Virus record (IMG/VR): IMGVR_UViG_2541047917_000011
Length of the DNA: 39,086 bases
Strand: one strand, 5' to 3'
From: a virus
Taxonomy: Duplodnaviria; Heunggongvirae; Uroviricota; Caudoviricetes
Of this stretch, positions 3,096-35,099 are shown piece after piece; positions within the stretch are counted from its first letter, which is position 1; each line of letters begins with the position of its first letter. A program made the position numbers and the translations under genes. Under the pieces are notes generated by a model. It was not told the origin of the DNA and did no database searches. It was given only the letters and a program-made list of their open reading frames with translations.

Positions 3096-4246
3096 TTTTT
3101 CTTCTCCTTAATCACCGTCGATGTACTGCCATCCGGGTGATAAACCGTGAGTTTCTGAGTTTTTTGTTTTTTCCCTCTTGTGACTGGCCCCCGTGCCACT
3201 TCCAGCTCTGTGGTGTAGCCGCTGTTACGGTCAAACGCATGGCGGGCAGTGGTTATGAGCCATGGCCCGGATAACTGCCCAAAACCCACCAGTTCAATTT
3301 TGTTGCCTGCTGTCAGTTGAGGTGTTCCCGTCAGCGTCAGGGAGCCGTTCTGCTGGTATTCGTTATGTCTGGCCAGTGCTGAATCCGCTTTAATCCGGGC
3401 ACTGTCCGGGTCGCTGACGCGGCTGTTAACTTTAAGTGAGTCAGCGCTGGTAACCTTACCACCTTTGAGCTTTTTGTCGCTTTCACGGGTACCACCATCA
3501 GCTTCGTGGACGATCAGTTTTTTACTGCTGCTTTTCTGGTGTTTTACCTTTGCAGATTTATAGACCCGGTTGATGGTGTCACGCAGGGAAAAGCGGGCCA
3601 CATCCTGCGGTTTTAACTGCCTGACCGTCTCCTGACTGCGCAGTGTGGCCAGATGAGAAAAAATCAGCTGGTCACTGACCACTTTCACTGCATAACCATA
3701 CTCGCTGGCCAGCCGGCGCAGAAAACCCACGTCGGTTTCAGCATACTGGGTCACCCGGTCGATTCTGATGGACTCAATGCTGCCCACCAGTTTCAGCCGG
3801 TGCTTTCTGGCAATCCGCCCCGCAACAGCTGCCAGCGTGGTGTTCTCAAAACCACGGCTGGATTTAGTCCGCAGAGCACTGTTAACCGAGGTGGCCACCC
3901 CACGGATAGAAACAACGGAAGCGGGCGAACTCACTTCGATCTCGTCTATAGAGAACGTACCGCAGGACAGCAGCTTCTCGCCCTGATAGCCCATTTTCAG
4001 CGTCAGCGTGTCACCCTTGCCCGGATACCACTTATCCAGCCAGCGGCCATCGGTGTCGTCCAGCTCCACCTCAATGGTATCGGACTCATTTTTGATGTTA
4101 TCGCTCCAGGTCACACGGGTGACATAAGGCGCGATATCAGAGGTGATGTTTTTCTGCAGATACCACAGAGTGAACACCGGTGTCAGCACATCGCTGACGC
4201 CGGTTAACGCTGATGTGACTTGCGCAGTGCTGTTTATCTCAGCCAT
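3092..4246 (-). CDS. Tail/baseplate hub protein, late control D family (Mu P / P2 gpD-like)
   Basis: 384 aa, basic C-terminus, position after tape measure-U-X as in P2/Mu tails. Confidence 0.75.
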   Translation of the reverse strand: MAEINSTAQVTSALTGVSDVLTPVFTLWYLQKNITSDIAPYVTRVTWSDNIKNESDTIEVELDDTDGRWLDKWYPGKGDTLTLKMGYQGEKLLSCGTFSIDEIEVSSPASVVSIRGVATSVNSALRTKSSRGFENTTLAAVAGRIARKHRLKLVGSIESIRIDRVTQYAETDVGFLRRLASEYGYAVKVVSDQLIFSHLATLRSQETVRQLKPQDVARFSLRDTINRVYKSAKVKHQKSSSKKLIVHEADGGTRESDKKLKGGKVTSADSLKVNSRVSDPDSARIKADSALARHNEYQQNGSLTLTGTPQLTAGNKIELVGFGQLSGPWLITTARHAFDRNSGYTTELEVARGPVTRGKKQKTQKLTVYHPDGSTSTVIKEKKK

Positions 4247-4449
4247 GGGGCAATATCCTCTTCTGTACGGGCTTCTTCAGTCTCAATCACCGGGATCAGT
4301 AACAACAGCCCGGAGGGCAGCACCGGCGTGATGGCCACGTGAGGATTGGCGGCAATAATCCGGGGATAGCCCAGCGGGTCACCGTAGTACTGCCATGCCA
4401 GCGAATCCCAGCGCTCTCCGTCACGGGTAACATGTTCAAGAAACATCAC
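4234..4449 (-). CDS. Tail protein X (LysM-like, P2 gpX family)
   Basis: 71 aa with the GD..D.I...YYG...I.AANP...LP.G pattern typical of gpX; overlaps both neighbours. Confidence 0.6.
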   Translation of the reverse strand: MMFLEHVTRDGERWDSLAWQYYGDPLGYPRIIAANPHVAITPVLPSGLLLLIPVIETEEARTEEDIAPWLR

Positions 4450-5330: not shown

Positions 5331-8281
5331 CAGCGGTACTCCTTACGTTGTTTCTGAGCCAGCAGACGCTCCAGCATTTTTTCCAGCTCATGCAGGCTCA
5401 TATTCAGGGCGCCAGTCAGTCCGGCAGGCGCTGTGGTTTCCCTGCCATTGAGGAAAAACTGAGGATTAAAGCTGACCTGGATACCACCAGACGTTCCACC
5501 GCCGGTTGCAGCTGCACCACGGCCTGAATATCCGGCAGCCAGGATTTCAGGCGAGGGGATACGGGGAACATCCGGTGTCATCTCATTTGCCAGACGTTGC
5601 CCTGGTAAAATCGATGCCCGGGTGGAGAGCGGAATAGCGGGCATGGAAGACAAACTATTGATTACGGCTCCGATCGCATTTTTAGCAGACGACATAAACC
5701 CATTGATATCGGGCAACGGCATACTGAAGCGAACACCTGAAGTGTTATCCCGTATTTCTGGCCCCTGAATGCTCACGGGCATTTTGGGGAGCAGTTCACT
5801 GGCCATTCGCTGCCCGGCCAGAGCTGCAAGCGGAGTGGTCCGCTGCAGGCCAATGGCGGCCCCCTGCGCGATATTGTCACCAAAGCCCATAAACACGCGG
5901 CTCGGCGAATGAATGCCCAGCTTTTCGCTGAACCAGCCACTGATGCTGTCACCCATTCCGGTTACACTGGATTTGAGCGACTCCCATTTGTTTTTGATAC
6001 CGTTAATCAGACCGTCGACAAGATGGCCACCGAAGTCGGTGAACTTTGCCGGCAGATCAACACCAAGATATTTCAGCGCAGCTGCAAAGGCTTTATAGAG
6101 CAGACCTGCCGGCGACCAGTTAATCAGCAGCTTACCAGTTCCCGCGATACCGCCGTTAAAGGCTTCCTGAATGTCAGCCCAGCACTGTTTAAACCAGCTA
6201 CTGATGCTGTCACCCATTCCGGTTACACTGGATTTGAGCGACCCCCATTTGTTTTTGATACCGTTAATCAGACCGTCGATAAGATGGCCACCGAAGTCGG
6301 TGAACTTTGCCGGCAGAGCAACGCCGAAATATTTCAGCGCAGCCGCAAAGGCTTTATAGAGCAGGCCTGCCGGCGACCAGTTAATCAGCAACTTACCAAT
6401 TCCCACAATGCCGCCGTTAAAGGCTTCCTGAATGTCTGCCCAGCGCTGTTTAAACCAGCCACTGACTGCCCCCCAGTTGCGGTAGATAAGGTAAGCTGCT
6501 GCCGCGACAGCGGTGATAACGAGACCGATGGGATTCATCATCAGCGCACGTCCAATCCAGAGAACAGCACGTCCGGCGAGCATAATTCCGCGAACCAGCC
6601 CCCCGGAGAGCACGCCACTCAGTGTTCTGGCTCCTTTGGCGACGGCGCTAAATCCGGTCACCAGCCAGCGGAGCTTACCGCCTTGCCCCAGTGCGAGCGA
6701 CAGACGAAGCCAGTTGGCCCGAAGTAAAACAGCATTTTTCCAGACACTTACAAAGGGGGAAATAAGGAGATTCAGCCCCAGTTTGAGACCAACAGTCGCT
6801 ATCTTAATCGCAAGGAGCGCACTGATGAGCTTAAAAGCCCCACTGACAAATTGCGGGTGAGTCGCTACCCAGTGTTTTGCCCCCTGAATGAGTGGAAGCA
6901 GTTCCTGAGTCAGAGAAATAAAAGATGGAGCTAATTGATCGCCCAGCGTAATTGCCAGATCACGACTGCTGACCATAAGTGCTTTAGTGGCTTCAAGGGG
7001 AGATTTCAGCCGCTGATCATAAGCACTGGCAAGCAAATCGTTATCCGCAGCCCTGAGAGCACCGGCACGGATCTCTCGATATCTGTCCATGTTGGCCAGC
7101 ATCGGGCGGATAAATGCCATGACCTGCATATCCGCGAACATATCGCCCAGACCAAAGTTTTTCGCCAGAGCCTGAAGTGCCTCATCTCTTGCCGTATCAT
7201 TCTTTATTTTCATGGCTGATTTGAAGCCGGCCAGCGCTTCGGGGCTTTTGGCATTGAGGTAACGTTCTATAACACTCAACATCCCTTCAATCGGAGAGAT
7301 CCCCGCAGCTTTATAACTCGCAATAGATCCCTGCAAATCAATACCCAGATCAGCAAACTGTTTCTGAGTATCGCGGGCAAAAATTTTGGTAAGAAAGTTT
7401 TTAAAATTATTGGCTGCTTCGTCGGTGGAACCTGCACCGATTTTTGCTATCTGGAGACTGGCCCCGATTTCAGCAACAGCCTCTTTTCCACTGGCAATAC
7501 CCGCCATCATTGGGGCCAGGGACTGCATCCACTTGACCTGATCCGGGATTTCAAATGACCCCTGGTCACCGGCATAAGCCATAATATTCTGAACGGCACC
7601 AAAATCTCTGGCCGCACCTTTCAGGGAGTTTTGCCAGACTGCGGCCACTTTTGCCCAGTCCTGAGCAGACGTGCGTGTTGCCGTTGCCGCGCGGGCAATA
7701 TCCGGCATCAGAAAACCGATATCTGACACATTATCAATATTGTCGCTGATGAGTGAACCCACCGCCTCCTGCAGCTCATCCTGATACTGATTGTATTTAA
7801 GCGCCCAGCCTTTTATCTGTCCGGCAAGTGCATCCCGCGTTTTATTGTCATATTTTGCGGTGATCGACATATCAATCATTTTGTCCTGAAAAGACATGGA
7901 CTGCTGAACGGCAGGGGAAACCGTATGATAAACAGTCTGTGCCATGCCATACGCTTCAATCCCCTGACCATACAGCGCCATGCGGTTAGCTTTCAGCGCA
8001 TCACTGGTAGCGGATGCCGCTGACAGACGGCGCTGCTGGCGCTCAATTTGCTCCATGGTGCGGCTTACCCGCAGCAGCTCGCTGTTGAGATGCTGCATCC
8101 GGGAAGAACCCAGTTGACCATAACGTTCTGTTGCACGGGTTAAAGCGTTCTGACGTTCCTGCAGGCGGCGTGAGGTATCGCTCAGGGAATCAAGCGCACG
8201 GCGGGTACCGCTCATTGCAGAACGGAATGTGCTACCAATCATCCCGCCGATAACAACGCCGACTGAAAACTGTCCCGACAT
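5330..8281 (-). CDS. Tail tape measure protein
   Basis: 983 aa, coiled-coil N-terminal half, Gly/Ala-rich hydrophobic segments, internal tandem repeat; located between chaperone and U/X/D genes. Confidence 0.85.
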   Translation of the reverse strand: MSGQFSVGVVIGGMIGSTFRSAMSGTRRALDSLSDTSRRLQERQNALTRATERYGQLGSSRMQHLNSELLRVSRTMEQIERQQRRLSAASATSDALKANRMALYGQGIEAYGMAQTVYHTVSPAVQQSMSFQDKMIDMSITAKYDNKTRDALAGQIKGWALKYNQYQDELQEAVGSLISDNIDNVSDIGFLMPDIARAATATRTSAQDWAKVAAVWQNSLKGAARDFGAVQNIMAYAGDQGSFEIPDQVKWMQSLAPMMAGIASGKEAVAEIGASLQIAKIGAGSTDEAANNFKNFLTKIFARDTQKQFADLGIDLQGSIASYKAAGISPIEGMLSVIERYLNAKSPEALAGFKSAMKIKNDTARDEALQALAKNFGLGDMFADMQVMAFIRPMLANMDRYREIRAGALRAADNDLLASAYDQRLKSPLEATKALMVSSRDLAITLGDQLAPSFISLTQELLPLIQGAKHWVATHPQFVSGAFKLISALLAIKIATVGLKLGLNLLISPFVSVWKNAVLLRANWLRLSLALGQGGKLRWLVTGFSAVAKGARTLSGVLSGGLVRGIMLAGRAVLWIGRALMMNPIGLVITAVAAAAYLIYRNWGAVSGWFKQRWADIQEAFNGGIVGIGKLLINWSPAGLLYKAFAAALKYFGVALPAKFTDFGGHLIDGLINGIKNKWGSLKSSVTGMGDSISSWFKQCWADIQEAFNGGIAGTGKLLINWSPAGLLYKAFAAALKYLGVDLPAKFTDFGGHLVDGLINGIKNKWESLKSSVTGMGDSISGWFSEKLGIHSPSRVFMGFGDNIAQGAAIGLQRTTPLAALAGQRMASELLPKMPVSIQGPEIRDNTSGVRFSMPLPDINGFMSSAKNAIGAVINSLSSMPAIPLSTRASILPGQRLANEMTPDVPRIPSPEILAAGYSGRGAAATGGGTSGGIQVSFNPQFFLNGRETTAPAGLTGALNMSLHELEKMLERLLAQKQRKEYR
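5921..6465. repeat. Tandem duplication (period 261 bp, about 2.1 copies, ~90% identical) inside the tape measure gene
   Basis: Motif AACCAGC(C/T)ACTGA recurs at 5931, 6192 and 6453; encodes repeated ~87-aa unit WFKQ.WADIQEAFNGGI... Confidence 0.85.
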
Positions 8282-22290: not shown

Positions 22291-22767
22291 ATGACGCACA
22301 CACTGAATCCGGTCATCACTGTCACTGTGTCCGGTCCTGTGGGCAGCGGTAAAAGTTACGTACTGGCGCGGATAGAAGAGATGGTGAAACAGGAACTCGG
22401 AAACAGCGTCATTGTCGATGCTGCTGACGTGGAGAATGAGCGCCGTATGAATGGCGAAGATCTGACGACCTGGCAGAAGCCACGGGGTGGCACAGTGATC
22501 AGGCTGGAGGAATACACGGGACAGGGCCTGTTGTCATACGGCGAGGAGCGTATCTGTCGGACGAATGAGCTGCTGGATGTTATATGCCCCACGGGCCGGC
22601 AACCCTGGATACTGCCCGATGCACTGCATGCCACCATTGCGGCACTGATGACAGTTTACGATCAGGAGCTGCTCATGAAGGAGTTACGTAAACTCACCGG
22701 TCAGCCAACAGAATGTTGTTCGTCTCCGAAGTACGGCAAACAGGAAAACGCCCCGGATAATCCTTAA
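22291..22767 (+). CDS. Small P-loop NTPase / nucleotide-kinase-like protein of unknown function
   Basis: 158 aa; Walker A GPVGSGKS near N-terminus, candidate Walker B VIVDAAD; AGGAG RBS; only plus-strand gene amid minus-strand genes. Confidence 0.6.
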   Translation: MTHTLNPVITVTVSGPVGSGKSYVLARIEEMVKQELGNSVIVDAADVENERRMNGEDLTTWQKPRGGTVIRLEEYTGQGLLSYGEERICRTNELLDVICPTGRQPWILPDALHATIAALMTVYDQELLMKELRKLTGQPTECCSSPKYGKQENAPDNP

Positions 22768-22786
22768 GATACCTCCTGAACAGAAA

Positions 22787-22802
22787 CAGCCCTGAAGGGC
22801 TG
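22787..22802. terminator. Hairpin between convergent genes (P-loop gene and accessory operon)
   Basis: CAGCCC-tgaa-GGGCTG perfect stem; T-rich on minus strand and A-rich on plus strand. Confidence 0.45.
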
Positions 22803-22804
22803 CA

Positions 22805-23395
22805 CTAAAAAAAGAAGTGTATTATTGCCCAAACAGCTATAACGATGATTCCCAGCCCAAGAGCCGATTCTAACTTATCTTTGGCAGTCATTTTTACTGT
22901 TGTAGCGGGCGCAGGTAAGTCTTGCTGCTGTGGATTTTCTGTTAGTTGTTTACGAGAAGAAACATCGCCCCTGTTAGTTTGCTTCATGTTGATTACAGAT
23001 GCGTTATGGGCATTATCAGCAGCAATTGACTGAAGTTTTACAAAAGTTTTTGAATCTGTTTTAGCCAGAAGTAACCTATTTCCCGTAAACATTGCCTTAA
23101 AAGTGATAGTTTTTTTCGTCTTGTCCGCCGCACCAAGCAAACCTCCAATGACCAACCCTGCACCACCAAAGATTAATCCACCAAGCAAACCTGCGCCTGC
23201 CGCCTTACCTATACGGCTTTCCTCTTCACTATCCGCAAGTTCAATCGATAAAAGCTCTTCTTTCAGATTTAATACAATATTTTCAGGAAAGCCTTGTTTT
23301 GGTTTTTTGGCAAACACGATGGTACCGAACCCCATGCTTGCCCACCCTTTAGGAAAACTTCCTGCGATAACCTGAATCCCTGCCATGTTCATCAC
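22805..23395 (-). CDS. Membrane protein with glycine-zipper segment, unknown function
   Basis: 196 aa; GAGLLGGLIFGGAGLVIGGLLGA glycine zipper and C-terminal TM (LGLGIIVIAVWAIIHFFF); AT-rich. Confidence 0.5.
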   Translation of the reverse strand: MMNMAGIQVIAGSFPKGWASMGFGTIVFAKKPKQGFPENIVLNLKEELLSIELADSEEESRIGKAAGAGLLGGLIFGGAGLVIGGLLGAADKTKKTITFKAMFTGNRLLLAKTDSKTFVKLQSIAADNAHNASVINMKQTNRGDVSSRKQLTENPQQQDLPAPATTVKMTAKDKLESALGLGIIVIAVWAIIHFFF

Positions 23396-23476
23396 CTTTT
23401 ACATTAAAATTTCAGAACGCAGCATGATGCCGCCTTTGTCTTTTTTCTGATCCCATGGTAATTCAGCTGTTATTTT

Positions 23477-24463
23477 CTATTTAAGAATAAAACGGTATTT
23501 ACTGTCAGGAGTGCTTTGCTGATCAAGTAGCAGTGAACGACATGGAGCAGTCAAAACCCGAGCATAACTACCATCAGGGCTTATGTTAATGTAACAAACC
23601 TTGCCCTTAACACTATAATTTTCGGGGACGGATGCCTTTGCTGATACAGTAAATTTAAGGGTATGCCAGCCCGTTTTTTGCTTGTAGCTTGAAACCGAAT
23701 GGAAATCATCTGAGTACTTATTTAACCCTGGAAACATGCTGCGCAGTGCGGGGATGGAATCTTCTATTATTTTATCGTTGGTTTTAATGTTAAAAACGCT
23801 GGTTTCAGTAGAAGCTACTGCTTTGGCATTTCCCCATTTACCAGCGAACACAATCATTCCCACGAAAAATATTGCTACAAGAACTAACACTCCCCCCAAC
23901 ACTACTACATGAGGCTTCCGGCTTCTGGTTGGTACAGTTGCGACTGATTTTGCACCGCTTTCCGATGGAGGTGATAGAGTTTTACTCTCATCACGAATAT
24001 TCAGCAGATCATCAAAATAACCAAACACAGCCTGCAACTGCTCTTTGTCTAGGCCTTTAAGATGGGTTGTACCGAAATGCTTCAGACAGTATCTGTCACG
24101 GTCAAGACGATACCCAGGGTCAGTAAGCGCCATTATTTTGCTGACCAGAAGATTACAGTCCTTCATATTCTGGATCTGTTGTGCATATCTCTGAAGGATC
24201 TCAACCGCACCATGATAATCAGCCGCAGTCATTTCATTAACTGTTTTGGTATTAAGTTTCGTGTGGATCGTCATCCATAGCTCGCGCTTACTTTCCCCCA
24301 GATCAACCAATTCATCCATCAATCTGTGTAAATCGCGTTTTTGCAGCAACGAAATTGGTTGCTGGGCCGAAGGAAGTATGTCAGCAGAATAGTTATGAAT
24401 GGTAACATCACCGCTGACAACGTTACCCACATCCCCGTTAACTGTTTGCTTCTCTTTACTCAT
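23477..24463 (-). CDS. Single-pass membrane protein, unknown function, translationally coupled to repressor
   Basis: 328 aa; start ATG overlaps repressor stop (ATGA); N-terminal cytoplasmic domain, TM helix (VVVLGGVLVLVAIFFVGMIVFAG), C-terminal extracytoplasmic domain. Confidence 0.55.
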   Translation of the reverse strand: MSKEKQTVNGDVGNVVSGDVTIHNYSADILPSAQQPISLLQKRDLHRLMDELVDLGESKRELWMTIHTKLNTKTVNEMTAADYHGAVEILQRYAQQIQNMKDCNLLVSKIMALTDPGYRLDRDRYCLKHFGTTHLKGLDKEQLQAVFGYFDDLLNIRDESKTLSPPSESGAKSVATVPTRSRKPHVVVLGGVLVLVAIFFVGMIVFAGKWGNAKAVASTETSVFNIKTNDKIIEDSIPALRSMFPGLNKYSDDFHSVSSYKQKTGWHTLKFTVSAKASVPENYSVKGKVCYINISPDGSYARVLTAPCRSLLLDQQSTPDSKYRFILK

Positions 24464-24885
24464 CTTCTCTTGGTATTTTTGTTCATTATTCCACCTGTTC
24501 CTATGGTTACGTTACCTTTGATAACATTCCCCAGAACATCTCCATGAATAACCTGTTCCGCCCGTTCTCTGGAGGAGCCAGTAGTCAAGGCCGACAAAAC
24601 TGAACCTTTGACCTGTAATGGTGCCTGCCGGTAGTGCTGCAGTAACTCCATTTCATCACGTGATAAAGTTATACCTGATGACTCCCCGGTAAGAATGAAC
24701 TGTACATTGGCCCCAATTCTTGCAAAGGCTGCAAGTAACTCACCTCCGGGAACAGCAACCCCTCGTTCATATTTCCCCCACATTTCTCTTGAAACGCCAC
24801 AAAGGGCTGCTACTTCAGCCTGCTTGAGTGATAACCGCGAACGCTCAGCTTTGAACCGCGACGCGCAAAGAGAATCAAAATTCAC
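24460..24885 (-). CDS. Prophage repressor, XRE-family HTH
   Basis: HTH_XRE pattern (RLSLKQAEVAALCGVSREMWGKYERG); GTG 24885 with GAGG RBS preferred over ATG 24921, which would bury the early promoter inside the gene. Confidence 0.65.
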   Translation of the reverse strand: MNFDSLCASRFKAERSRLSLKQAEVAALCGVSREMWGKYERGVAVPGGELLAAFARIGANVQFILTGESSGITLSRDEMELLQHYRQAPLQVKGSVLSALTTGSSRERAEQVIHGDVLGNVIKGNVTIGTGGIMNKNTKRR

Positions 24886-24895
24886 ATAAACCTCA

Positions 24896-24924
24896 TTGAC
24901 AATGAGAACAATAGTTCTCATAAT
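24896..24924 (+). promoter_or_regulatory. Early promoter: -35 TTGACA (24896-24901), 17-bp spacer, -10 CATAAT (24919-24924), with 20-bp palindromic operator ATGAGAAC-AATA-GTTCTCAT (24902-24921) in the spacer
   Basis: Read directly from sequence; sits 48 bp upstream of the ner-like ATG and between divergent repressor and early genes. Confidence 0.55.
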
Positions 24925-26449: not shown

Positions 26450-28219
26450 ATGAATGCTGCCCTGACTGAACGACTGGTTTATGTCGCCCGCGCGGCACGT
26501 GACGCGGGGCATGGTAAACGCGGTGCAATATACGACGCTGCCTGTGCTGAACTTGGCATGTCCCGCGCCACTCTGCTGCGCAGGCTGAAGGAGGTCTCTG
26601 TGACTGATAAACGCAAAAAACGCGCCGATGCCGGGCGCAGCGCCCTGACCCGCGACGAAGCCGCGCTGATATCTGCCACACTGCGTGAGGCCACCCGCAA
26701 GAACGGTAAGCGTCTCTATTCCATCGCAGATGCAGTGGAAACCCTGCGGGCTAACGGCTTTATCACCGCAGGCAGAACAGATGAAACCACCAGTGAGTTT
26801 TTCCCGTTGTCTGAAGATGCCATCAGCCGTGCTCTGCGTAACTATGGCCTGCACCCGGAACAACTGGATGCCCCTGCACCACATACCGAAGTGGCCAGTC
26901 TGCATCCCAATCATGTCTGGCAGATTGACGCCTCACTCTGCACGCTTTACTACCTGAGCAATGGACATAAAGGGCTGCAGGTGATGGACAGCGCGAAGTT
27001 CTACAAGAACAAGCCCGCTAACCTTGCCCGTATCGCCAGTGACCGTGTGTGGAGTTACGAGATTACCGACCATGCCAGCGGCTGGATTTACGTTGAGTAT
27101 GTGACGGGCGCGGAATCAGGTGAGAACCTGTGTTCTGTGCTTATCAACGCCATGCAGGAGCGTGGCGGCGCAGACGTGCTGCACGGCGTGCCGAAAATAC
27201 TCTATCTCGACCCCGGCTCGGCAAACACCGCGGGTATGACGAAAAACATGTGCCGCTCACTGGGCATCGACCTGATAGCGCACAAGCCGCATAACGCCCG
27301 CGCCACCGGACAGGTGGAAAAGGCGCGTGACATTATCGAACGCAAGCTGGAGCCGGGTCTGAAGTTCCGGCCGGTTCACAGTCTGGAAGAACTCAACGCG
27401 CTGGCCGCGAAATGGCGCAGCCACTTTAACGCCACGGCTGTTCACAGCCGCCACGGTAAAACCCGCACGGATATCTGGCTGAAGATTACTGCTGAGCAGC
27501 TGAAAAAAGCGCCTTCCGTTGAGGTATGTCGTGAACTGGCTGTGGCGGCACCAGAACTCCGCAAAGTCACGCCAAAACTTCGTGTCTCGTTCCGGGGCAC
27601 TGAATTTGACGTATCAACGGTACCGGGCGTACTGGTTGGTGAAAAACTGATGATTACCCGTAACCCATGGCGCAGCGATGTGGCACAGGTGGTTCTGACC
27701 GGTGAGGACGGCCACGAGACGTTCTTCCTGGTCGAAGAGGTCAGAAAGAACGAGTTTGGCTTTGCTGAAGGCGCGGCGGTATTTGGCGAAAGTTACAAAG
27801 CCCTGCCGGAAACCCCGGCACAGATGGCGGCAAAAGAAACCGAAGCGCTGGTTACCGGTACAGACAACGCCGCAGATGCAGCCGCCGCACGCAAGGCGAA
27901 GGCGCTGCCGTTCGGCGGGCGGCTTGACCCGTATAAACATATCGACGACACCACACTTCCGGCCTATATGCCGAAGCGTGGTCAGGCCTCTGACGTACGC
28001 GGGCCGCGCACTGAACAACGTCCCATGACTCATGTGGAGGCCGCGAAAGCCCTGCGCGATAAGTTCAGCGCCGACGGCCTTACCTGGACGCCGGAACATT
28101 ACCGCCAGTTAACGGCACAGTACCCGGACGGCGTACCGGAAGCCGCACTGGATGAAGTCATGGCCACGCTGACCACACCGGCCCGCAGCAGTGTTATCAG
28201 CATTGTTAACGGCAACTGA
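26450..28219 (+). CDS. DDE transposase, rve (integrase catalytic core) family; not MuA-like
   Basis: 589 aa; N-terminal HTH, catalytic-core-like WQID ... YLDPGSAN ... E spacing. Confidence 0.85.
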   Translation: MNAALTERLVYVARAARDAGHGKRGAIYDAACAELGMSRATLLRRLKEVSVTDKRKKRADAGRSALTRDEAALISATLREATRKNGKRLYSIADAVETLRANGFITAGRTDETTSEFFPLSEDAISRALRNYGLHPEQLDAPAPHTEVASLHPNHVWQIDASLCTLYYLSNGHKGLQVMDSAKFYKNKPANLARIASDRVWSYEITDHASGWIYVEYVTGAESGENLCSVLINAMQERGGADVLHGVPKILYLDPGSANTAGMTKNMCRSLGIDLIAHKPHNARATGQVEKARDIIERKLEPGLKFRPVHSLEELNALAAKWRSHFNATAVHSRHGKTRTDIWLKITAEQLKKAPSVEVCRELAVAAPELRKVTPKLRVSFRGTEFDVSTVPGVLVGEKLMITRNPWRSDVAQVVLTGEDGHETFFLVEEVRKNEFGFAEGAAVFGESYKALPETPAQMAAKETEALVTGTDNAADAAAARKAKALPFGGRLDPYKHIDDTTLPAYMPKRGQASDVRGPRTEQRPMTHVEAAKALRDKFSADGLTWTPEHYRQLTAQYPDGVPEAALDEVMATLTTPARSSVISIVNGN

Positions 28220-28229
28220 GGAGGGAAAC

Positions 28230-29396
28230 ATGCTGGTACTGAAGCAGCAACTGAAAGAGGCCCGTATTCCACAGGCGGTGGTGGCGAGAGCTGTCGATGT
28301 TTCTGAGGCCACGCTGGCCCAGATTGTGAATCATAACGCGTGGCCCCGCACCAGCCCCGGAGAAGTGCGCCGGCGTCTTGCGTCCTGGCTGGAAAGTCAG
28401 GGGATTGATACAACGAAGAGTTTTGATGCTGTACAGGGCGCGGCCACGCCCCGTACAGCGGGTACCACAGATAAAACGAGCCTCAGTGAGGAAGAGAATA
28501 TGTTACTCAAAAAACAGGTGTTATTTCCAGCAACCAAAAAAGCGTTTGGTCTTTTCCGTGACCCGTTCGCCGACGAAGCCATGCAGGGTTCTGATGATGT
28601 GTTCACCACCCCGGACATTCGCTACGTGCGTGAGGCGCTGTACCAGACAGCCCGTCATGGTGGGTTTATGGCCGTCATCGGTGAGTCCGGTGCGGGTAAA
28701 TCCACGCTGCGCCGCGACCTGACTGAACGTATCAACCGCGAGAATGCGCCGGTAATTGTTATCGAGCCATACATCATCGCTATGGAAGACAACGATGTGA
28801 AAGGGAAAACCCTGAAGGCAGCAGCTATTGCCGAAGCCATTATCAGTACCATCGCACCACTGGAAAGCATCAGACGCAGTCAGGACGCCCGTTTTCGCCA
28901 GTTGCATCGCGTCCTGAAAGACAGCAGCCAGGCGGGGTTCAGCCACGTTCTGGTGATTGAGGAGGCCCACAGTCTGCCCATTCCGACACTGAAACACCTC
29001 AAACGCTTTTTTGAGCTGGAGTCCGGTTTCAAAAAACTGCTGTCCATCGTGCTGATTGGCCAGCCGGAACTGGCGACAAAACTGTCTGAACGCAATATGG
29101 AAGTCCGTGAAGTCGTTCAGCGCTGTGAGGTGGTCGAACTTCTGCCTCTGGACAATAACCTTGAAGAATTTCTGACGTTCAAACTGCAACGGGCCGGTAA
29201 ACAGCTGACGGACATTATGGACGCCGGTGCAGTGGATGCCATACGTGCCCGCCTGAGCAATCCGGGAAGTCACCGTAAAAATATGGTCAGCCTGCTGTAT
29301 CCGCTGGCCGTCAGTAACCTGGTAATAGCCGCCATGAATCTGGCCGCTGAAATCGGGGTTCCACAGGTCAACGCTGACGTTGTCAAAGGGGTTTAA
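28230..29396 (+). CDS. Transposition ATPase, MuB-like AAA+ target-DNA activator
   Basis: N-terminal HTH, Walker A GESGAGKST, Walker B-like VLVIEEAH; GGAGGG RBS before ATG 28230; directly follows transposase. Confidence 0.75.
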   Translation: MLVLKQQLKEARIPQAVVARAVDVSEATLAQIVNHNAWPRTSPGEVRRRLASWLESQGIDTTKSFDAVQGAATPRTAGTTDKTSLSEEENMLLKKQVLFPATKKAFGLFRDPFADEAMQGSDDVFTTPDIRYVREALYQTARHGGFMAVIGESGAGKSTLRRDLTERINRENAPVIVIEPYIIAMEDNDVKGKTLKAAAIAEAIISTIAPLESIRRSQDARFRQLHRVLKDSSQAGFSHVLVIEEAHSLPIPTLKHLKRFFELESGFKKLLSIVLIGQPELATKLSERNMEVREVVQRCEVVELLPLDNNLEEFLTFKLQRAGKQLTDIMDAGAVDAIRARLSNPGSHRKNMVSLLYPLAVSNLVIAAMNLAAEIGVPQVNADVVKGV

Positions 29397-29398
29397 TA

Positions 29399-29668
29399 AT
29401 GAAATCCACCACAGGTATCAACCAGCAAATCAGCAAAGTGCAGTCAGCCATTATGGCGCTTAAGGCGACGAACACGGATGTACAAAGCATCACCATCAGG
29501 GGTAACAAACCTGTCATCCGCGTTTCCCGGAGTGCGCATTGCATGCGCATGCTTGAGCAGGGAAAGGCCTGTTATCTGTATACCGGACATGACCACAGGG
29601 GATATTTCCGTCAGGGCGTTTTCGAACTGCACGGCTGTCGCGTCGTGTGGCCGGAATCTTTGTGGTAA
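29399..29668 (+). CDS. Hypothetical early protein
   Basis: 89 aa ORF 3 nt after the B gene. Confidence 0.45.
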   Translation: MKSTTGINQQISKVQSAIMALKATNTDVQSITIRGNKPVIRVSRSAHCMRMLEQGKACYLYTGHDHRGYFRQGVFELHGCRVVWPESLW

Positions 29669-29695
29669 TCAGCACAACTGGAGAAATCATAAAAA

Positions 29696-30226
29696 ATGGC
29701 AAAAAGTACAAAAGGTGCAAAACGTATCAAGGCCGCAGCAGCACTCTGGGTGCCGGGGACACGTGAAGAGGTCATTGAGGGAATCAGACTACTCGGTGAC
29801 GCACAACGTGAACTGGTCAGGGCTGAAACAGAAATGAATGACGCCATTGGCGATATCACCGCACGTTATGCCCCGCTCACCGAGAGCCTGAAAAAACGCA
29901 TGGCCGAACTGCAGTCCGGTATTCAGACATGGTGTGAGGCACACCGTGATGAACTGACCGGCAACGGGAAGGTGAAGTTCGCTAACCTCACCACCGGCGA
30001 GGTGCAGTGGCGAAACCGTCCGCCATCAGTCAGTATCCGTGGGGCGGATAATGTTATTGAATTACTGAGACGTCTGGGGCTTGAGCGCTTTATTCGTGTA
30101 AAAGAGGAAATAAATAAAGACGCTATCCTGAATGAAAAAGAGGCCGTGAAAAATATTCCCGGTATTTCCATTAAAAGCGACATTGAGGATTTTTCAATAA
30201 TTCCTTTTGAGCAGGATGTGCAGTAA
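29696..30226 (+). CDS. gam: Host-nuclease inhibitor Gam (Mu Gam / Ku-like)
   Basis: 176 aa, family-typical sequence and position after A/B. Confidence 0.8.
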   Translation: MAKSTKGAKRIKAAAALWVPGTREEVIEGIRLLGDAQRELVRAETEMNDAIGDITARYAPLTESLKKRMAELQSGIQTWCEAHRDELTGNGKVKFANLTTGEVQWRNRPPSVSIRGADNVIELLRRLGLERFIRVKEEINKDAILNEKEAVKNIPGISIKSDIEDFSIIPFEQDVQ

Positions 30227-30323
30227 ACACACCACGTTAATTATTTAATAAAAACATTTTCTTTTTTATTCCGACGTCAGCGCCGCGGGCTTCTGCACGC
30301 CGGAAACAGAGGAGAATTAAATC

Positions 30324-30518
30324 ATGATATTTAAATGTATTCAGTGCGAGAGGGATATAACAGCCCTGCGTTTTCACAGCGCCATCGCCGTGATGTCCGG
30401 TAAATACCACATCCCTGCGGTACGCGTCACCCTGGTCTGCCCGTACTGCAGCCAGCATTTTTCGGCAGACGTGCCCGTCATGGAATTCTCCCGCCCTGAC
30501 AGGGAGGACTCGCAATGA
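30324..30518 (+). CDS. Small CxxC...CxxC zinc-ribbon-like protein
   Basis: 64 aa with two Cys pairs (CIQC ... CPYC); GAGGAG RBS. Confidence 0.4.
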   Translation: MIFKCIQCERDITALRFHSAIAVMSGKYHIPAVRVTLVCPYCSQHFSADVPVMEFSRPDREDSQ

Positions 30519-30787
30519 TTACCCCACAGGAAGCACGACAGCGCACCCGAACCCTTGTTGAACACTATGTCAACGAGTGTGAATGCCGCGACCTCACCGA
30601 TGTGAAGCACGTCCTGACGGCGCTAATCAGCATGACCGCTCAAGCCATTGTGGCGACCAACGGAAAGGCGGCTGCCCTGCAGGTACTGGTGAACACACTA
30701 ACCCACACGGCAGCGCATGAGGTGCCGTACCGGATGGAAACCACTGCAGAAGGCGGCCTGCACATCACCGTCAGCCGGAAGCACTGA
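30515..30787 (+). CDS. Hypothetical early protein
   Basis: 90 aa ORF, 4-nt overlap with upstream gene. Confidence 0.4.
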   Translation: MITPQEARQRTRTLVEHYVNECECRDLTDVKHVLTALISMTAQAIVATNGKAAALQVLVNTLTHTAAHEVPYRMETTAEGGLHITVSRKH

Positions 30788-30796
30788 GGGCGCGGC

Positions 30797-31093
30797 ATGA
30801 CACGGAACACCATACTCACCCGCACCGCCCTCTACCGTCTGGCCCTGCAGCGTTTCGGGCCGGACGCACAGGCCCTGAAACTGACAGAAGAGGCCGCTGA
30901 ACTGGCGGCCAGTGCTGCCCGCAATCTGAACGGACAGGGCAGCGAAAGCGACCTCGCGGCAGAGCTGGCAGACGTGGAAATCATGACAGAGCAATTGCGC
31001 CTTCAGGGGATGGACCGGCTGATTGACTTCCACAAACAGAAAAAACTGGAACGTCTGGCTGCACGACTGGGCGTGATTTACACGAACGAGTAA
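30797..31093 (+). CDS. MazG-like nucleotide pyrophosphohydrolase domain protein
   Basis: 98 aa with EEAAELA and AELADVEIM motifs typical of all-alpha NTP-PPase (MazG) fold. Confidence 0.5.
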   Translation: MTRNTILTRTALYRLALQRFGPDAQALKLTEEAAELAASAARNLNGQGSESDLAAELADVEIMTEQLRLQGMDRLIDFHKQKKLERLAARLGVIYTNE

Positions 31094-31107
31094 CCGGGAG
31101 GCATTCA

Positions 31108-31323
31108 ATGGCTGACATACTCAGGGAAATCACCGCATGGATACTGATTCTTACTGGCCTGGCGACATGCCTCAGTGCGGGGGCAGCCCTGGCTGCCCTG
31201 CTGATGCACATAACAACACAGTGGTTATGGGAAAAGCTTAAAGCAGCATACAGCCTGAAAGAGCTGTCCGACGCTGTCCGGGCATGGAAACGGCAGAAAA
31301 ATACCGGAGATACAGAACAATGA
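31108..31323 (+). CDS. Small membrane protein
   Basis: 71 aa, one hydrophobic helix. Confidence 0.35.
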   Translation: MADILREITAWILILTGLATCLSAGAALAALLMHITTQWLWEKLKAAYSLKELSDAVRAWKRQKNTGDTEQ

Positions 31324-32003
31324 CAGACCAGAATAAACACATTGAGAAACTGAAAAAGTTGCTGGCGCTGGCCGCATCCGGCAACCCGCACGAGGCCGCT
31401 CTGGCACTGCGCCGAGCCCGTAAACTGATGGATGTTCACGGCATCACACATTCCGACATTGCTATGAGTGATATTGATGAAACCATCAGTCACTACTGGC
31501 CGACAGGCAGTCTCCGTCCACCGCGCTACATGCTGGGCCTGATGAACATCATCCGCGAGGTATTTGGTGTTAACTCCATCATTCACCCCGGCACGCATCC
31601 GTCTGTGGGGTTCTACGGCAACCGGGAACGTGCGGCACTGGCTGCATACACCTGGGAAGTGCTGGCCCGTCAGCTGAAAAAGGCGCGTCAGCAGTATATC
31701 AGTGCACAGAACAAAAGAATAAAAACCGCCACCCGCACCAGCCGTGGAGACCAGTTTGCCGAAGGCTGGGTGCTGGCCGTTATCAGTGAAATACAGTCCT
31801 TTGCCCTGACCGATGATGAGCGTGAACTGATGCAGCAGTGGCTGGAACATAAATACCCGCAGACGCAAACCACCAGGGCGCGTAAACCGGGAAGAAGCCG
31901 CAATGGCGACGCCTCGCGCTATGCGGGGTTTCGTGAAGGGCAGAACGTCAGACTGCACCGCCCGGTCAGTGGGCAGGAACAACAGAAACTGGAGGCCAGA
32001 TGA
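31320..32003 (+). CDS. Hypothetical early protein
   Basis: Start chosen at ATG 31320 overlapping upstream stop (ATGA). Confidence 0.45.
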   Translation: MTDQNKHIEKLKKLLALAASGNPHEAALALRRARKLMDVHGITHSDIAMSDIDETISHYWPTGSLRPPRYMLGLMNIIREVFGVNSIIHPGTHPSVGFYGNRERAALAAYTWEVLARQLKKARQQYISAQNKRIKTATRTSRGDQFAEGWVLAVISEIQSFALTDDERELMQQWLEHKYPQTQTTRARKPGRSRNGDASRYAGFREGQNVRLHRPVSGQEQQKLEAR

Positions 32004-32219
32004 TTACGCTATCAGGTAAAAGCCGGAAATTAAAAGCCTGCCGAATATCTGCCAGATACCTTTTTGCCCGCGCCTTTTTTAAGAACGTCAGGCCGGGGAT
32101 CACAATTGGTGTTATTGCCGGACGCGAACAGGTTGAAAAATACATGTCAGGTGCATGGTGGAATAACGACCCTGTCATTGCTGCCCGTAATATTCATATC
32201 GAATGGGGAGGTATTCAGA

Positions 32220-32426
32220 ATGACTACTGAAACCATTGTCTGTTTTCTTTTCTGGTATATGTACGCAGGATCATGCAGCGCAAGACTTCATCGTTCCCTG
32301 GGCTATGGCAGGCACTACGACACCGCGCATTACATCCTGTACATGACCGCCGTCATGTTGTTCTGGCCAGTCACCCTGCCAGCTGCAACCGACATTGTTG
32401 CCGACAGACTGAAAAAAAGGAGATGA
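32220..32426 (+). CDS. Small membrane protein
   Basis: 68 aa, GGGGAGG RBS before ATG 32220, two hydrophobic helices. Confidence 0.35.
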   Translation: MTTETIVCFLFWYMYAGSCSARLHRSLGYGRHYDTAHYILYMTAVMLFWPVTLPAATDIVADRLKKRR

Positions 32427-32427
32427 T

Positions 32428-32877
32428 ATGCAGAAAAAACGCCTGATACAGCTTATCCATATTGCCCGTAATGAACTGGGTATGGATGAAGACACCTACC
32501 GCCAGATGTTACAGGGGCTGACCGGTAAAGCCTCAACCAAAGGAATGGATACCACACAACTAAACTGCGTGCTGGAATCCATGAAAAAGAAAGGCTTTCG
32601 CGTTAAACCAGCCAGAAAAGCCAGCTCCGGTTTACCGCTGGATAACCATCCGCAGTCCAGGAAAATTCGTGCGCTATGGCTTGAAATGGCTGCTGCCGGC
32701 ATTGTTCGTGACCGTTCAGAAAATGCATTAGCGAGGTGGATCAAGCGGGAAACGGGCATCAGCGCCCTGCGCTGGCTCAGTACTGAACAGGCAAGCAGTG
32801 TTATTGAGAAACTGAAGAAGTGGCAGCGCAGAGCTGCGGGAGTCAAACATGAGCGACCTGAATCAGTTTCGAAGTAA
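32428..32877 (+). CDS. GemA-like regulatory protein (Mu gp16, DUF1018 type)
   Basis: 149 aa, family-typical sequence and position just before Mor. Confidence 0.7.
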   Translation: MQKKRLIQLIHIARNELGMDEDTYRQMLQGLTGKASTKGMDTTQLNCVLESMKKKGFRVKPARKASSGLPLDNHPQSRKIRALWLEMAAAGIVRDRSENALARWIKRETGISALRWLSTEQASSVIEKLKKWQRRAAGVKHERPESVSK

Positions 32878-33238
32878 GGGGCCGGAACTCCTGGTGGAAC
32901 TGGCACAGCATACCTCTGAGACCGTTCGCGAGATTATTGATATTGAGCCCGAAGTTGCCGACCAGATTGGTCAGGCCGTCGCGAACCGAATGATGCAGGT
33001 CTGGGGCGGGCAAAACGTTTATTTCCCGATGGGCATGGTATGGAAGGTCAGTCAGCGCGACCGGGAAATCTTCAGGGAGTTTAACGGACGCAACCACCAC
33101 GAACTGGCCCGCAAATTTGGTGTTTCGCTTCAGTGGGTCTACAGCGTGGTTAAGCGGGTAAGAAAAGAAGAACTGGATCGGATGCAGGGCAAGCTATTTG
33201 CTGATGAACCCGATGCAGATACGGAGAAAAAAGAGTAA
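32849..33238 (+). CDS. mor: Mor/C-family transcriptional activator
   Basis: 129 aa with the C-terminal HTH typical of Mu Mor/C; last gene of the early arm. Confidence 0.75.
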   Translation: MSDLNQFRSKGPELLVELAQHTSETVREIIDIEPEVADQIGQAVANRMMQVWGGQNVYFPMGMVWKVSQRDREIFREFNGRNHHELARKFGVSLQWVYSVVKRVRKEELDRMQGKLFADEPDADTEKKE

Positions 33239-33267
33239 TATCTGCAATCAGGCTGGCGCGAGTTCTG

Positions 33268-33324
<57 letters not shown>

Positions 33325-33325
33325 A

Positions 33326-33705
<380 letters not shown>

Positions 33706-33893
33706 AAGTCGTTCCCTCAGGAAGAAGTGATGAGTGACATTTTTCACAGCATCCAAACAATTCTATTTCATCGTTAGCCCTTGTCCTGTAAGGCAATTGC
33801 CTTAACACGCCCGCTATTCATCCTGCCGAACGTAACCGAACGCGCCGGATACATGAGCGGGGTTATCGAGTCGTTAGATCGAGGTATCCGGTT

Positions 33894-35099
33894 TTGAGCA
33901 AGACACCACTGACAGCAAAGGCCATAGACGCCGCACAACCAAAGGACAAGCAATACAAACTCACCGATTCACTGACGCCCGGCCTGTTTTTGCTGGTGCA
34001 TCCCAACGGATCAAAGTATTGGCGATTCAGGTTCTGGATGGACAAAAAAGAGTATTTGCAGGCTATTGGAGTGTACCCGCTAATCAGCCTCAAGGAAGCC
34101 CGTAAACGCGCTACAGAGAGCCGATCTCTGATTGCTAATGGAATTAATCCAGTGGAAGAAGCACGCAAGGAAAAAGCCATTGATGCGCTCAACATGGCGG
34201 CAGGTTTTAAGACGGTAGCGGAGGACTGGCTGGCTACCAGGGTCAGCGGGTGGTCAGAGTCCTACACGAAACAGGTTAGATCGGCACTGGAAAAAGATGT
34301 TTACCCCGTGCTGGGGAAGCGGTCAATTGTCGATATAACGGCCCGTGACGTGCTGGCATTGCTTCAGAAGAAAGAGCGTACCGCACCGGAACAAGCCAGG
34401 AAGCTACGCCAGCGTATCGGGGAGATCTTCAAATTTGCCGTTATCACCGAACTGGTTAACCGAAATCCGGTTGCAGATCTGGACTCGGCCCTGAAAGCCC
34501 GCCGACCAGGTCACAATGCATGGCTGCAAATTAGTGAAATTCCGCCCTTCTACAAAGCCCTTGAGAGAGCCGGGAGCGTTCAGATTCAGACGGCAATACG
34601 TTTGCTTATATTAACGGCATTAAGGACCGCAGAACTGCGTTTAATGCGCTGGGAATGGGTAGATCTGGAGTCAGCAACAATCACCCTACCCGCTGAAGTC
34701 ATGAAGGCCCGCCGACCGCACGTAGTCCCGTTATCCCGGCAGGCGGTCGAGCTATTACAGGACCAGTTTACCCGCAGCGGATACAGTGCTTTCGTCTTTC
34801 CGGGTCGATTCATGGATAAGCCATTGTCAGCCAGTGCGATACTGAAGGCGCTTGAGAGGATCGGCTATAAAGCCCTTGTCACTGGTCACGGATGGCGCAC
34901 AACATTCAGCACCGCACTTAACGAGTCCGGCAGGTACTCACCAGACTGGATCGAGATACAACTGGCCCACGTTCCAAAGGGAATCAGGGGAGTTTACAAT
35001 CAGGCGGCCTACCTGAAGCAACGACGAGCAATGATGCAATCGTACGCGGACGCCATTGATTCAATACTGGCTGGTGACGGCAATCCGCTGGAACCGTGA
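33894..35099 (+). CDS. intZ: Tyrosine site-specific integrase, P4 family
   Basis: 401 aa; N-terminal DUF4102-like arm domain, C-terminal HxxR and catalytic Tyr; TTG start; symbol assigned from genomic context, not from a search. Confidence 0.85.
   Translation: MSKTPLTAKAIDAAQPKDKQYKLTDSLTPGLFLLVHPNGSKYWRFRFWMDKKEYLQAIGVYPLISLKEARKRATESRSLIANGINPVEEARKEKAIDALNMAAGFKTVAEDWLATRVSGWSESYTKQVRSALEKDVYPVLGKRSIVDITARDVLALLQKKERTAPEQARKLRQRIGEIFKFAVITELVNRNPVADLDSALKARRPGHNAWLQISEIPPFYKALERAGSVQIQTAIRLLILTALRTAELRLMRWEWVDLESATITLPAEVMKARRPHVVPLSRQAVELLQDQFTRSGYSAFVFPGRFMDKPLSASAILKALERIGYKALVTGHGWRTTFSTALNESGRYSPDWIEIQLAHVPKGIRGVYNQAAYLKQRRAMMQSYADAIDSILAGDGNPLEP

Follow-up and report, generated by a model that had tools for sequence, protein, structure and literature searches.

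Seven tightly packed genes between gam and gemA of a BcepMu-like prophage of Escherichia coli, among them a divergent MazG-like protein

We analysed the block of small genes between gam and gemA in a window of 39,086 nucleotides, the whole stretch of IMG/VR virus record IMGVR_UViG_2541047917_000011. The window is a piece of Escherichia coli chromosome with a transposable prophage of the Bcepmuvirus type (BcepMu-like), and the block is probably the distal part of the early operon of this element, a counterpart of the 'semi-essential early region' of Mu. Its seven genes are real and conserved, share one orientation, are closely coupled and occupy the early arm of the prophage, and the RefSeq/PGAP annotation carries exactly these seven coding sequences (CDS). 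The third gene, orf3, encodes a protein that likely belongs to the MazG clan and whose metal-binding motif is intact. The genes, and the spacer that precedes them, are as follows:

30227-30323, + strand: AT-rich spacer between gam and orf1, 97 nt of sequence
30324-30518, + strand: orf1, 64 aa, zinc-ribbon-like (CxxC...CxxC), phrog_3401
30515-30787, + strand: orf2, 90 aa, soluble, phrog_3691
30797-31093, + strand: orf3, 98 aa, putative divergent nucleoside triphosphate (NTP) pyrophosphohydrolase of the MazG clan (all-alpha), phrog_2245
31108-31323, + strand: orf4, 71 aa, single-pass membrane protein, phrog_3958
31320-32003, + strand: orf5, 227 aa, DUF2786 and DUF7168, the largest and most widely conserved of the block
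32000-32230, + strand: orf6, 76 aa, basic, phrog_3681
32220-32426, + strand: orf7, 68 aa, two hydrophobic segments, phrog_6436

A first-pass annotation of this DNA had reported six short open reading frames (ORFs) between gam and gemA, starting at position 30237 and packed with overlapping stops and starts. The cluster is real and its tight packing was confirmed: ATGA overlaps join orf1 to orf2, orf4 to orf5 and orf5 to orf6, orf6 and orf7 overlap by 11 nt, and the remaining gaps at the junctions of the block are 9, 14 and 1 nt. The number of genes, however, is seven, the 227-aa DUF2786/DUF7168 protein having been overlooked, and position 30237 marks where an antisense shadow ORF ends, the first gene starting at 30324. 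All seven ORFs begin with ATG behind a GGAG-type Shine-Dalgarno sequence, and each shows a full-length PHROG match, with E values from 1e-34 to 1e-77. The exact sequences of all seven proteins are present in public databases, each on at least 1000 contigs.

It could be argued that in this GC-rich DNA some or all of the frames are open simply by chance, or that the opposite strand codes. Long antisense ORFs are indeed present, of 333 aa (30981-31982) and 136 aa (30698-31108), and the GenBank record of Escherichia phage PhiKM carries a - strand CDS over orf1 (30237-30515 in the window, 6638-6859 of the PhiKM stretch). We compared the frames with their diverged copies by the ratio of non-synonymous to synonymous change (pN/pS). 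Most + strand frames were under purifying selection, with values of 0.05-0.29 for orf1, 0.08-0.22 for orf3 and 0.09-0.29 for orf5; orf2 gave 0.34-0.66. In contrast, the antisense ORFs gave 0.64-2.8, mostly above 1, and contained stop codons in homologues. The antisense frames at 30237-30515, 30698-31108 and 30981-31982 were rejected on these two grounds as shadow ORFs, and the - strand CDS of PhiKM is probably a mis-call, since its pN/pS was 1.0-2.8 as against 0.05-0.14 for orf1 on the + strand. One value weighs the other way: orf6, at 0.21 against Klebsiella phage KP12, gave a ratio of about 1 within E. coli, on few changes. Given also the start signals, the PHROG matches and the RefSeq annotation of the + strand genes, we consider coding by chance frames or by the opposite strand extremely improbable.

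A scan of the block for sigma-70-like promoters and intrinsic terminators returned none above shuffle expectation, which fits read-through from an early promoter. Judging from the layout and from the Mu paradigm, the seven genes would probably be co-transcribed from that promoter and translationally coupled, and their products would appear within the first minutes after lytic growth begins. An Rfam search of the region gave no match at E<=1. Folding of the spacer between gam and orf1 was marginally more stable than expected (z=-2.28; 6 of 200 shuffled sequences folded equally well); in the predicted hairpin a U-rich tract (~30255-30265) pairs with the Shine-Dalgarno region of orf1.

The setting of the block agrees with an early region of the Mu type. 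The genes are on the early strand, with gam on one side and gemA/mor on the other, the placement that the first-pass annotation had given them, and the element carries a DDE transposase and a MuB-like ATPase. Upstream of gam, the + strand encodes a helix-turn-helix (HTH) regulator, a DUF3102 protein, the transposase and the ATPase, and the gam gene itself carries the Gam annotation in both PhiKM and RefSeq. The late genes (holin, tail, baseplate) are on the - strand and face the early genes, as in genomes of the BcepMu type. The landmarks around the block are:

26450-28219, + strand: DDE (rve) transposase, with an rve match
28191-29396, + strand: MuB-like ATPase, with an AAA_22 match
29696-30226, + strand: gam (host-nuclease inhibitor), upstream boundary of the block, Pfam Phage_Mu_Gam, E=9.9e-41
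32428-32877, + strand: gemA, downstream boundary of the block, Pfam GemA, E=8.3e-41
32849-33238, + strand: mor (late-transcription activator), last gene before the prophage end, Pfam Mor, E=1.3e-43
33394-33756, - strand: truncated host eutB, first ~91 positions of the EutB profile
33894-35099: P4-type integrase gene, following the truncated eutB

The stretch from 29600 to 33300 of the window matches PhiKM (PQ738613, genus Bcepmuvirus) along its entire length at 99.5% identity. The prophage end on the mor side lies inside host eutB, of which only the first ~91 profile positions are left; since this truncated EutB is what follows the prophage end, we conclude that the element inserted into eutB. 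Of 5426 complete E. coli genomes, 629 carry the block, at differing chromosomal sites adjoining ycaL/cmk, sufC or other loci, and this variation in insertion site is as expected for transposition. The presence of the prophage in about one-ninth of complete E. coli genomes, along with the isolation of the near-identical PhiKM, makes these early accessory genes accessible for testing.

Position, strand and the Gam, GemA and Mor flanks are the same here as in the semi-essential early region of Mu and Mu-like phages (B/kil/gam to gemA/mor), and in those regions, too, many small, tightly packed genes vary between relatives. In its mixture of conserved and variable small genes the block agrees with what has been described for Mu-like phages of Pseudomonas (PMC4378225). 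Unlike in Mu, the element is of the BcepMu type (Bcepmuvirus), with its late genes facing the early ones, and none of the seven proteins was found in Mu by tblastn at E<=1e-3, PhiKM and Phi06_2974 B being the sole Escherichia phages matched. The block is an ordinary accessory early region, already annotated in hundreds of genomes, and shows no departure from known kinds.

We then considered the protein encoded by orf3, which likely belongs to the all-alpha NTP pyrophosphohydrolase (NTP-PPase, MazG) superfamily, tested here as the Pfam families MazG (PF03819), MazG-like (PF12643) and PRA-PH (PF01503), and which is a member of a divergent small-protein branch of it. Direct searches with orf3 failed, as detailed below, and the assignment was therefore made transitively. 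Orf3 matches phrog_2245, annotated 'nucleoside triphosphate pyrophosphohydrolase', with E=2.8e-34, and more weakly phrog_4856 and phrog_1992, which are NTP-PPase/MazG PHROGs. It carries the acidic motif EExxE...ExxD as E31-E32-x-x-E35 and E56-x-x-D59. All 22 near (enterobacterial) homologues share E31, E32, E56 and D59; 70 distant relatives of 31-54% identity all have E31 and D59, with conservation of at least 90% at E32, E35 and E56. A profile of the near homologues, used in an exhaustive search, retrieved 10,760 representatives at E<=1e-3. Among the 70 sampled distant relatives, 37 matched MazG, 14 PRA-PH and 7 MazG-like at E<=0.1 (6, 1 and 2, respectively, at E<=1e-3), and no other Pfam family gathered more than three matches. 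A wider orf3 profile searched against PDB aligned motif on motif with Bacillus MazG (5ie9, E=0.0078) and integron iMazG (E=0.045-0.086), and likewise with YpjD and the MazG of S. solfataricus. The label is not new: PGAP, in its newer annotation, and IMG independently name orf3 an NTP pyrophosphohydrolase or NTP pyrophosphatase, and the MazG-like call of the first-pass annotation repeats these assignments. The modest addition made here is a quantified transitive case for placing orf3 in the MazG clan.

Several results weigh against this assignment. The best Pfam match of orf3 itself was PRA-PH at 14.5 bits, under the cut-off of 21.3 (E=0.047), with no match to MazG or MazG-like; the NCBIfam model hisI scored 14.3 bits against a cut-off of 42.7; and neither phmmer nor the profile of the 22 near homologues found a MazG among PDB sequences. 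An AlphaFold2 (AF2) model of orf3 was all-alpha, with a predicted local distance difference test (pLDDT) score of 78, and had one unbroken helix at residues 50-91 where MazG proteins have two. A Foldseek search with this model placed DCTPP1, iMazG, MazG, HisE-type enzymes and archaeal pyrophosphatases at the top, with E values of 0.16-1 and template modelling (TM) scores of 0.4-0.5. This enrichment in members of the superfamily speaks for the assignment; no match was significant, however, every one having E>0.1 and none reaching E<=0.001. The MazG-like call thus holds at the level of the superfamily, on the PHROG match, the motif, the transitive Pfam matches and the PGAP and IMG names, and fails at the level of the curated families, where orf3 stays below all cut-offs.

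Compared with known single-domain MazG-type enzymes (iMazG, 2q5z/2q73; 5ie9; YpjD, 2gta; DCTPP1, 7mu5; HisE/PRA-PH), orf3 has a similar size, ~95-100 aa, and a similar all-helical make-up, its EExxE...ExxD motif aligns with that of 5ie9, and single-domain proteins of this kind head its Foldseek list. It differs from the curated families in scoring under their cut-offs and in matching solved structures weakly (profile E 0.008-0.3; Foldseek E>0.1).

These shortfalls invite a reading in which orf3 is no enzyme but a small helical regulator or binding partner that has its MazG-like acidic motif by descent or by chance and has lost catalysis. Besides the sub-threshold family scores and the lack of significant similarity, in sequence or fold, to any MazG of solved structure, it could be noted that helices rich in E, A and L may draw spurious profile matches, and designed helical proteins were among the PDB matches of the wider profile. 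Such a loss is difficult to reconcile with the four invariant acidic residues and the nearly invariant E35 in homologues down to 31% identity, and with the strong purifying selection on orf3 (pN/pS 0.08-0.22); the strong and specific enrichment of MazG-clan Pfam families among distant members also argues for a retained active site. We therefore hold a non-enzymatic orf3 to be very unlikely.

In the favoured reading, orf3 most likely works as a Mg2+-dependent all-alpha NTP pyrophosphohydrolase that would bind metal through E31, E32, E35, E56 and D59. Its substrate would be a linear nucleotide, a (deoxy)nucleoside triphosphate ((d)NTP) or an alarmone, whose alpha-beta phosphoanhydride bond it would hydrolyse to yield nucleoside monophosphate and pyrophosphate, and this activity may condition the host nucleotide pool for phage replication and replicative transposition. 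House-cleaning of (d)NTPs and removal of (p)ppGpp are both precedented for MazG enzymes, and both (p)ppGpp and (d)NTPs are plausible substrates of orf3. MazG enzymes cleave phosphoanhydride bonds, and cyclic (oligo)nucleotide signals have none. Second messengers of the cyclic nucleotide type contain no pyrophosphate bond and are therefore improbable substrates, and the idea that the MazG-like enzyme could hydrolyse them is at odds with established MazG biochemistry. The block could show what small phage enzymes of the MazG type do, be it alarmone removal, dNTP sanitation or counter-defence.

The first-pass annotation had also proposed anti-defence functions, and the block can be read as an island that chiefly disarms host immunity, with orf3 destroying (p)ppGpp or a linear nucleotide made by a defence system and thereby blocking abortive infection. 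A precedent exists in Atd1 of Pectobacterium phage PcCB7V, a phage MazG-like enzyme that depletes (p)ppGpp and protects against the toxicity of TIR-STING and retron-TIR (bioRxiv 10.1101/2022.06.09.495361). Compared by description only, Atd1 and orf3 are both phage-encoded minimal MazG catalytic domains and both plausible (p)ppGpp hydrolases acting early in infection; unlike Atd1, orf3 resides in a temperate transposable phage and does not lie beside a phage nucleotidyltransferase. The block is, moreover, mosaic and quickly changing, as counter-defence loci often are, its neighbour Gam is a nuclease inhibitor, and some small accessory ORFs in Mu-like phages of Pseudomonas encode anti-CRISPRs (PMC4378225). 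On the other hand, PADLOC returned nothing for any of the seven proteins and no gene matches a characterised anti-defence protein, so that the proposed role found no support from homology; the 50 phage records retrieved with the orf3 family consensus included no Pectobacterium phage and hence showed no link to Atd1; and cyclic signals would, as noted above, escape such an enzyme. The occurrence of this small NTP-PPase family in Clostridium, Bifidobacterium and haloarchaeal phages also fits a general role in the nucleotide pool. An anti-defence role for the block, proposed by analogy, is therefore possible but unlikely.

A more elaborate version would make the block a three-part module of counter-defence and host takeover, which we regard as quite unlikely. 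Here, the MazG-like enzyme, possibly with the zinc-ribbon protein, would prevent abortive infection by removing an alarmone or a linear nucleotide made by a defence system; the small membrane proteins would act on the envelope or on superinfection functions; and the DUF2786/DUF7168 protein would serve as a KH-like nucleic-acid-binding early factor common to Mu-like phages across Proteobacteria.

The family to which orf3 belongs is widespread in phages. A tblastn search with the family consensus returned 50 phage records, many annotated as NTP-PPase, from phages of Clostridium, Bifidobacterium, Cellulophaga, Vibrio, Xanthomonas and Halobacterium, and metagenomic members are found among strings of small phage genes that overlap. 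A homologue 59% identical to orf3 lies directly upstream of gemA and mor in an unrelated Mu-like prophage, in which the other small genes all differ; that unrelated Mu-like elements recurrently carry this small NTP-PPase immediately before gemA is a second modest addition.

Two observations concern the zinc-ribbon and MazG-like genes together. One database protein of 166 aa (P0036) has an orf1-like zinc ribbon fused to a MazG-like domain, and in KP12 (2501-2982 of the compared stretch) the zinc-ribbon and MazG-like genes are immediate neighbours joined by an ATGA overlap, orf2 being absent. Such arrangements may point to joint action of the zinc-ribbon protein and the MazG-like enzyme; the fusion could be a frameshift artefact, given its aberrant C-terminus. 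A literature search by RefSeq accessions returned only an incidental entry in a transposon-sequencing table: in a screen of transposon insertions in uropathogenic E. coli with colicin and ethylenediaminetetraacetic acid (EDTA), the close allele WP_001295929.1, 98% identical to orf3 with two residues different, is listed as a 'hypothetical protein' match with a log fold change (logFC) of -1.96 (PMC6351738).

The largest protein of the block, encoded by orf5, scored well above the Pfam gathering thresholds, with 90.4 bits against 25.5 for DUF7168 and 42.9 against 23.9 for DUF2786. Within the block it alone reaches widely, being present in 182 phage records, mostly from Mu-like phages of Ralstonia and Pseudomonas and further from phages of Shewanella, Pasteurella, Curvibacter and Komagataeibacter. 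Gp17 of Pseudomonas phage JBD24 (DUF2786/DUF7168; phrog_421) is 36% identical to it and is likewise encoded between gam and gemA. Orf5 is a basic protein (35 K+R against 23 D+E), and its motif NKRIKxxTKTxRGDxFAEGW at residues 131-150 is highly conserved, with K135, T138, R142, D144, F146 and W150 invariant. The AF2 model was confident (pLDDT 84.8); sequence and profile searches against PDB and a Foldseek search found nothing. As a KH domain we took a beta-alpha-alpha-beta-beta-alpha fold with a conserved GXXG loop between two helices. The core of orf5 lacks this loop and was not accepted as a KH domain, so that a KH-like nucleic-acid-binding core is a lead and not a classification; as a fold lead for DUF7168 it is the third modest addition of this work. 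A search of the literature on DUF2786 and DUF7168 found only incidental mentions and no functional study, and the block offers a route to a first function for this family, which is conserved in Mu-like phages.

The remaining five proteins were characterised through their families and hydrophobicity. Orf1 (phrog_3401, E=1.6e-40) retains C5/C8 and C39/C42 in homologues of 55% identity in Phi06_2974 B and KP12, in agreement with the zinc-ribbon-like call made at first pass; no zinc-ribbon family of Pfam scored above threshold, and IMG names the protein RPC12/RpoP-like. The two small membrane proteins proposed at the same time correspond to orf4 (phrog_3958, E=1.7e-41), where the call is clear with a KD19 maximum of 2.02, and to orf7 (phrog_6436, E=1.2e-44), where it is borderline at 1.52. 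Orf2 (phrog_3691, E=7e-55) and orf6 (phrog_3681, E=6.5e-55) had no informative match.

The ORFs are conserved in related phages, and the gene content of the block is mosaic among relatives. Orf1, orf3 and orf7 recur in all the enterobacterial relatives compared and orf5 across Mu-like phages of many Proteobacteria, whereas orf2, orf4 and orf6 are variable. Thus, orf2 is present in Phi06_2974 B (44% identity) and absent from KP12, while orf6 is 77% identical in KP12 and absent from Phi06_2974 B. Orf4 is missing from both phages and from the E. coli copies L006 and L007; in these E. coli copies orf3 encodes 101 aa and ends with the last six codons of orf4 (TGDTEQ; 31080-31323 of the window, 2061-2366 of the copies). 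This insertion or deletion of orf4 points to recombination at the orf3/orf4 and orf4/orf5 junctions. All five enterobacterial relatives compared have orf7, at 38-47% identity, immediately before gemA. In the copies L006-L008 (~3263-3699) its allele is only 38-40% identical while neighbouring genes have at least 95% nucleotide identity, and nucleotide similarity to these copies stops at about position 32262 of the window, a sharp mosaic boundary just upstream of gemA.

Outside the block, a low-GC island at 22291-24921 (0.42-0.47, against ~0.55-0.59 elsewhere) lies beside an HTH repressor-like gene (24460-24921, - strand). Its three ORFs, at 23477-24463 (- strand, 328 aa), 22805-23395 (- strand, 196 aa) and 22291-22767 (+ strand, 158 aa), match PHROG families of unknown function, with no match in Pfam or PADLOC, and may be cargo expressed during lysogeny. 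Finally, the gam slot is filled by a DUF3164 protein in KP12 (1810-2421 of the compared stretch; Pfam 3e-80) and also in the unrelated Mu-like prophage (3673-4293 of its compared stretch), and the DUF3164 protein may be a functional alternative to Gam.

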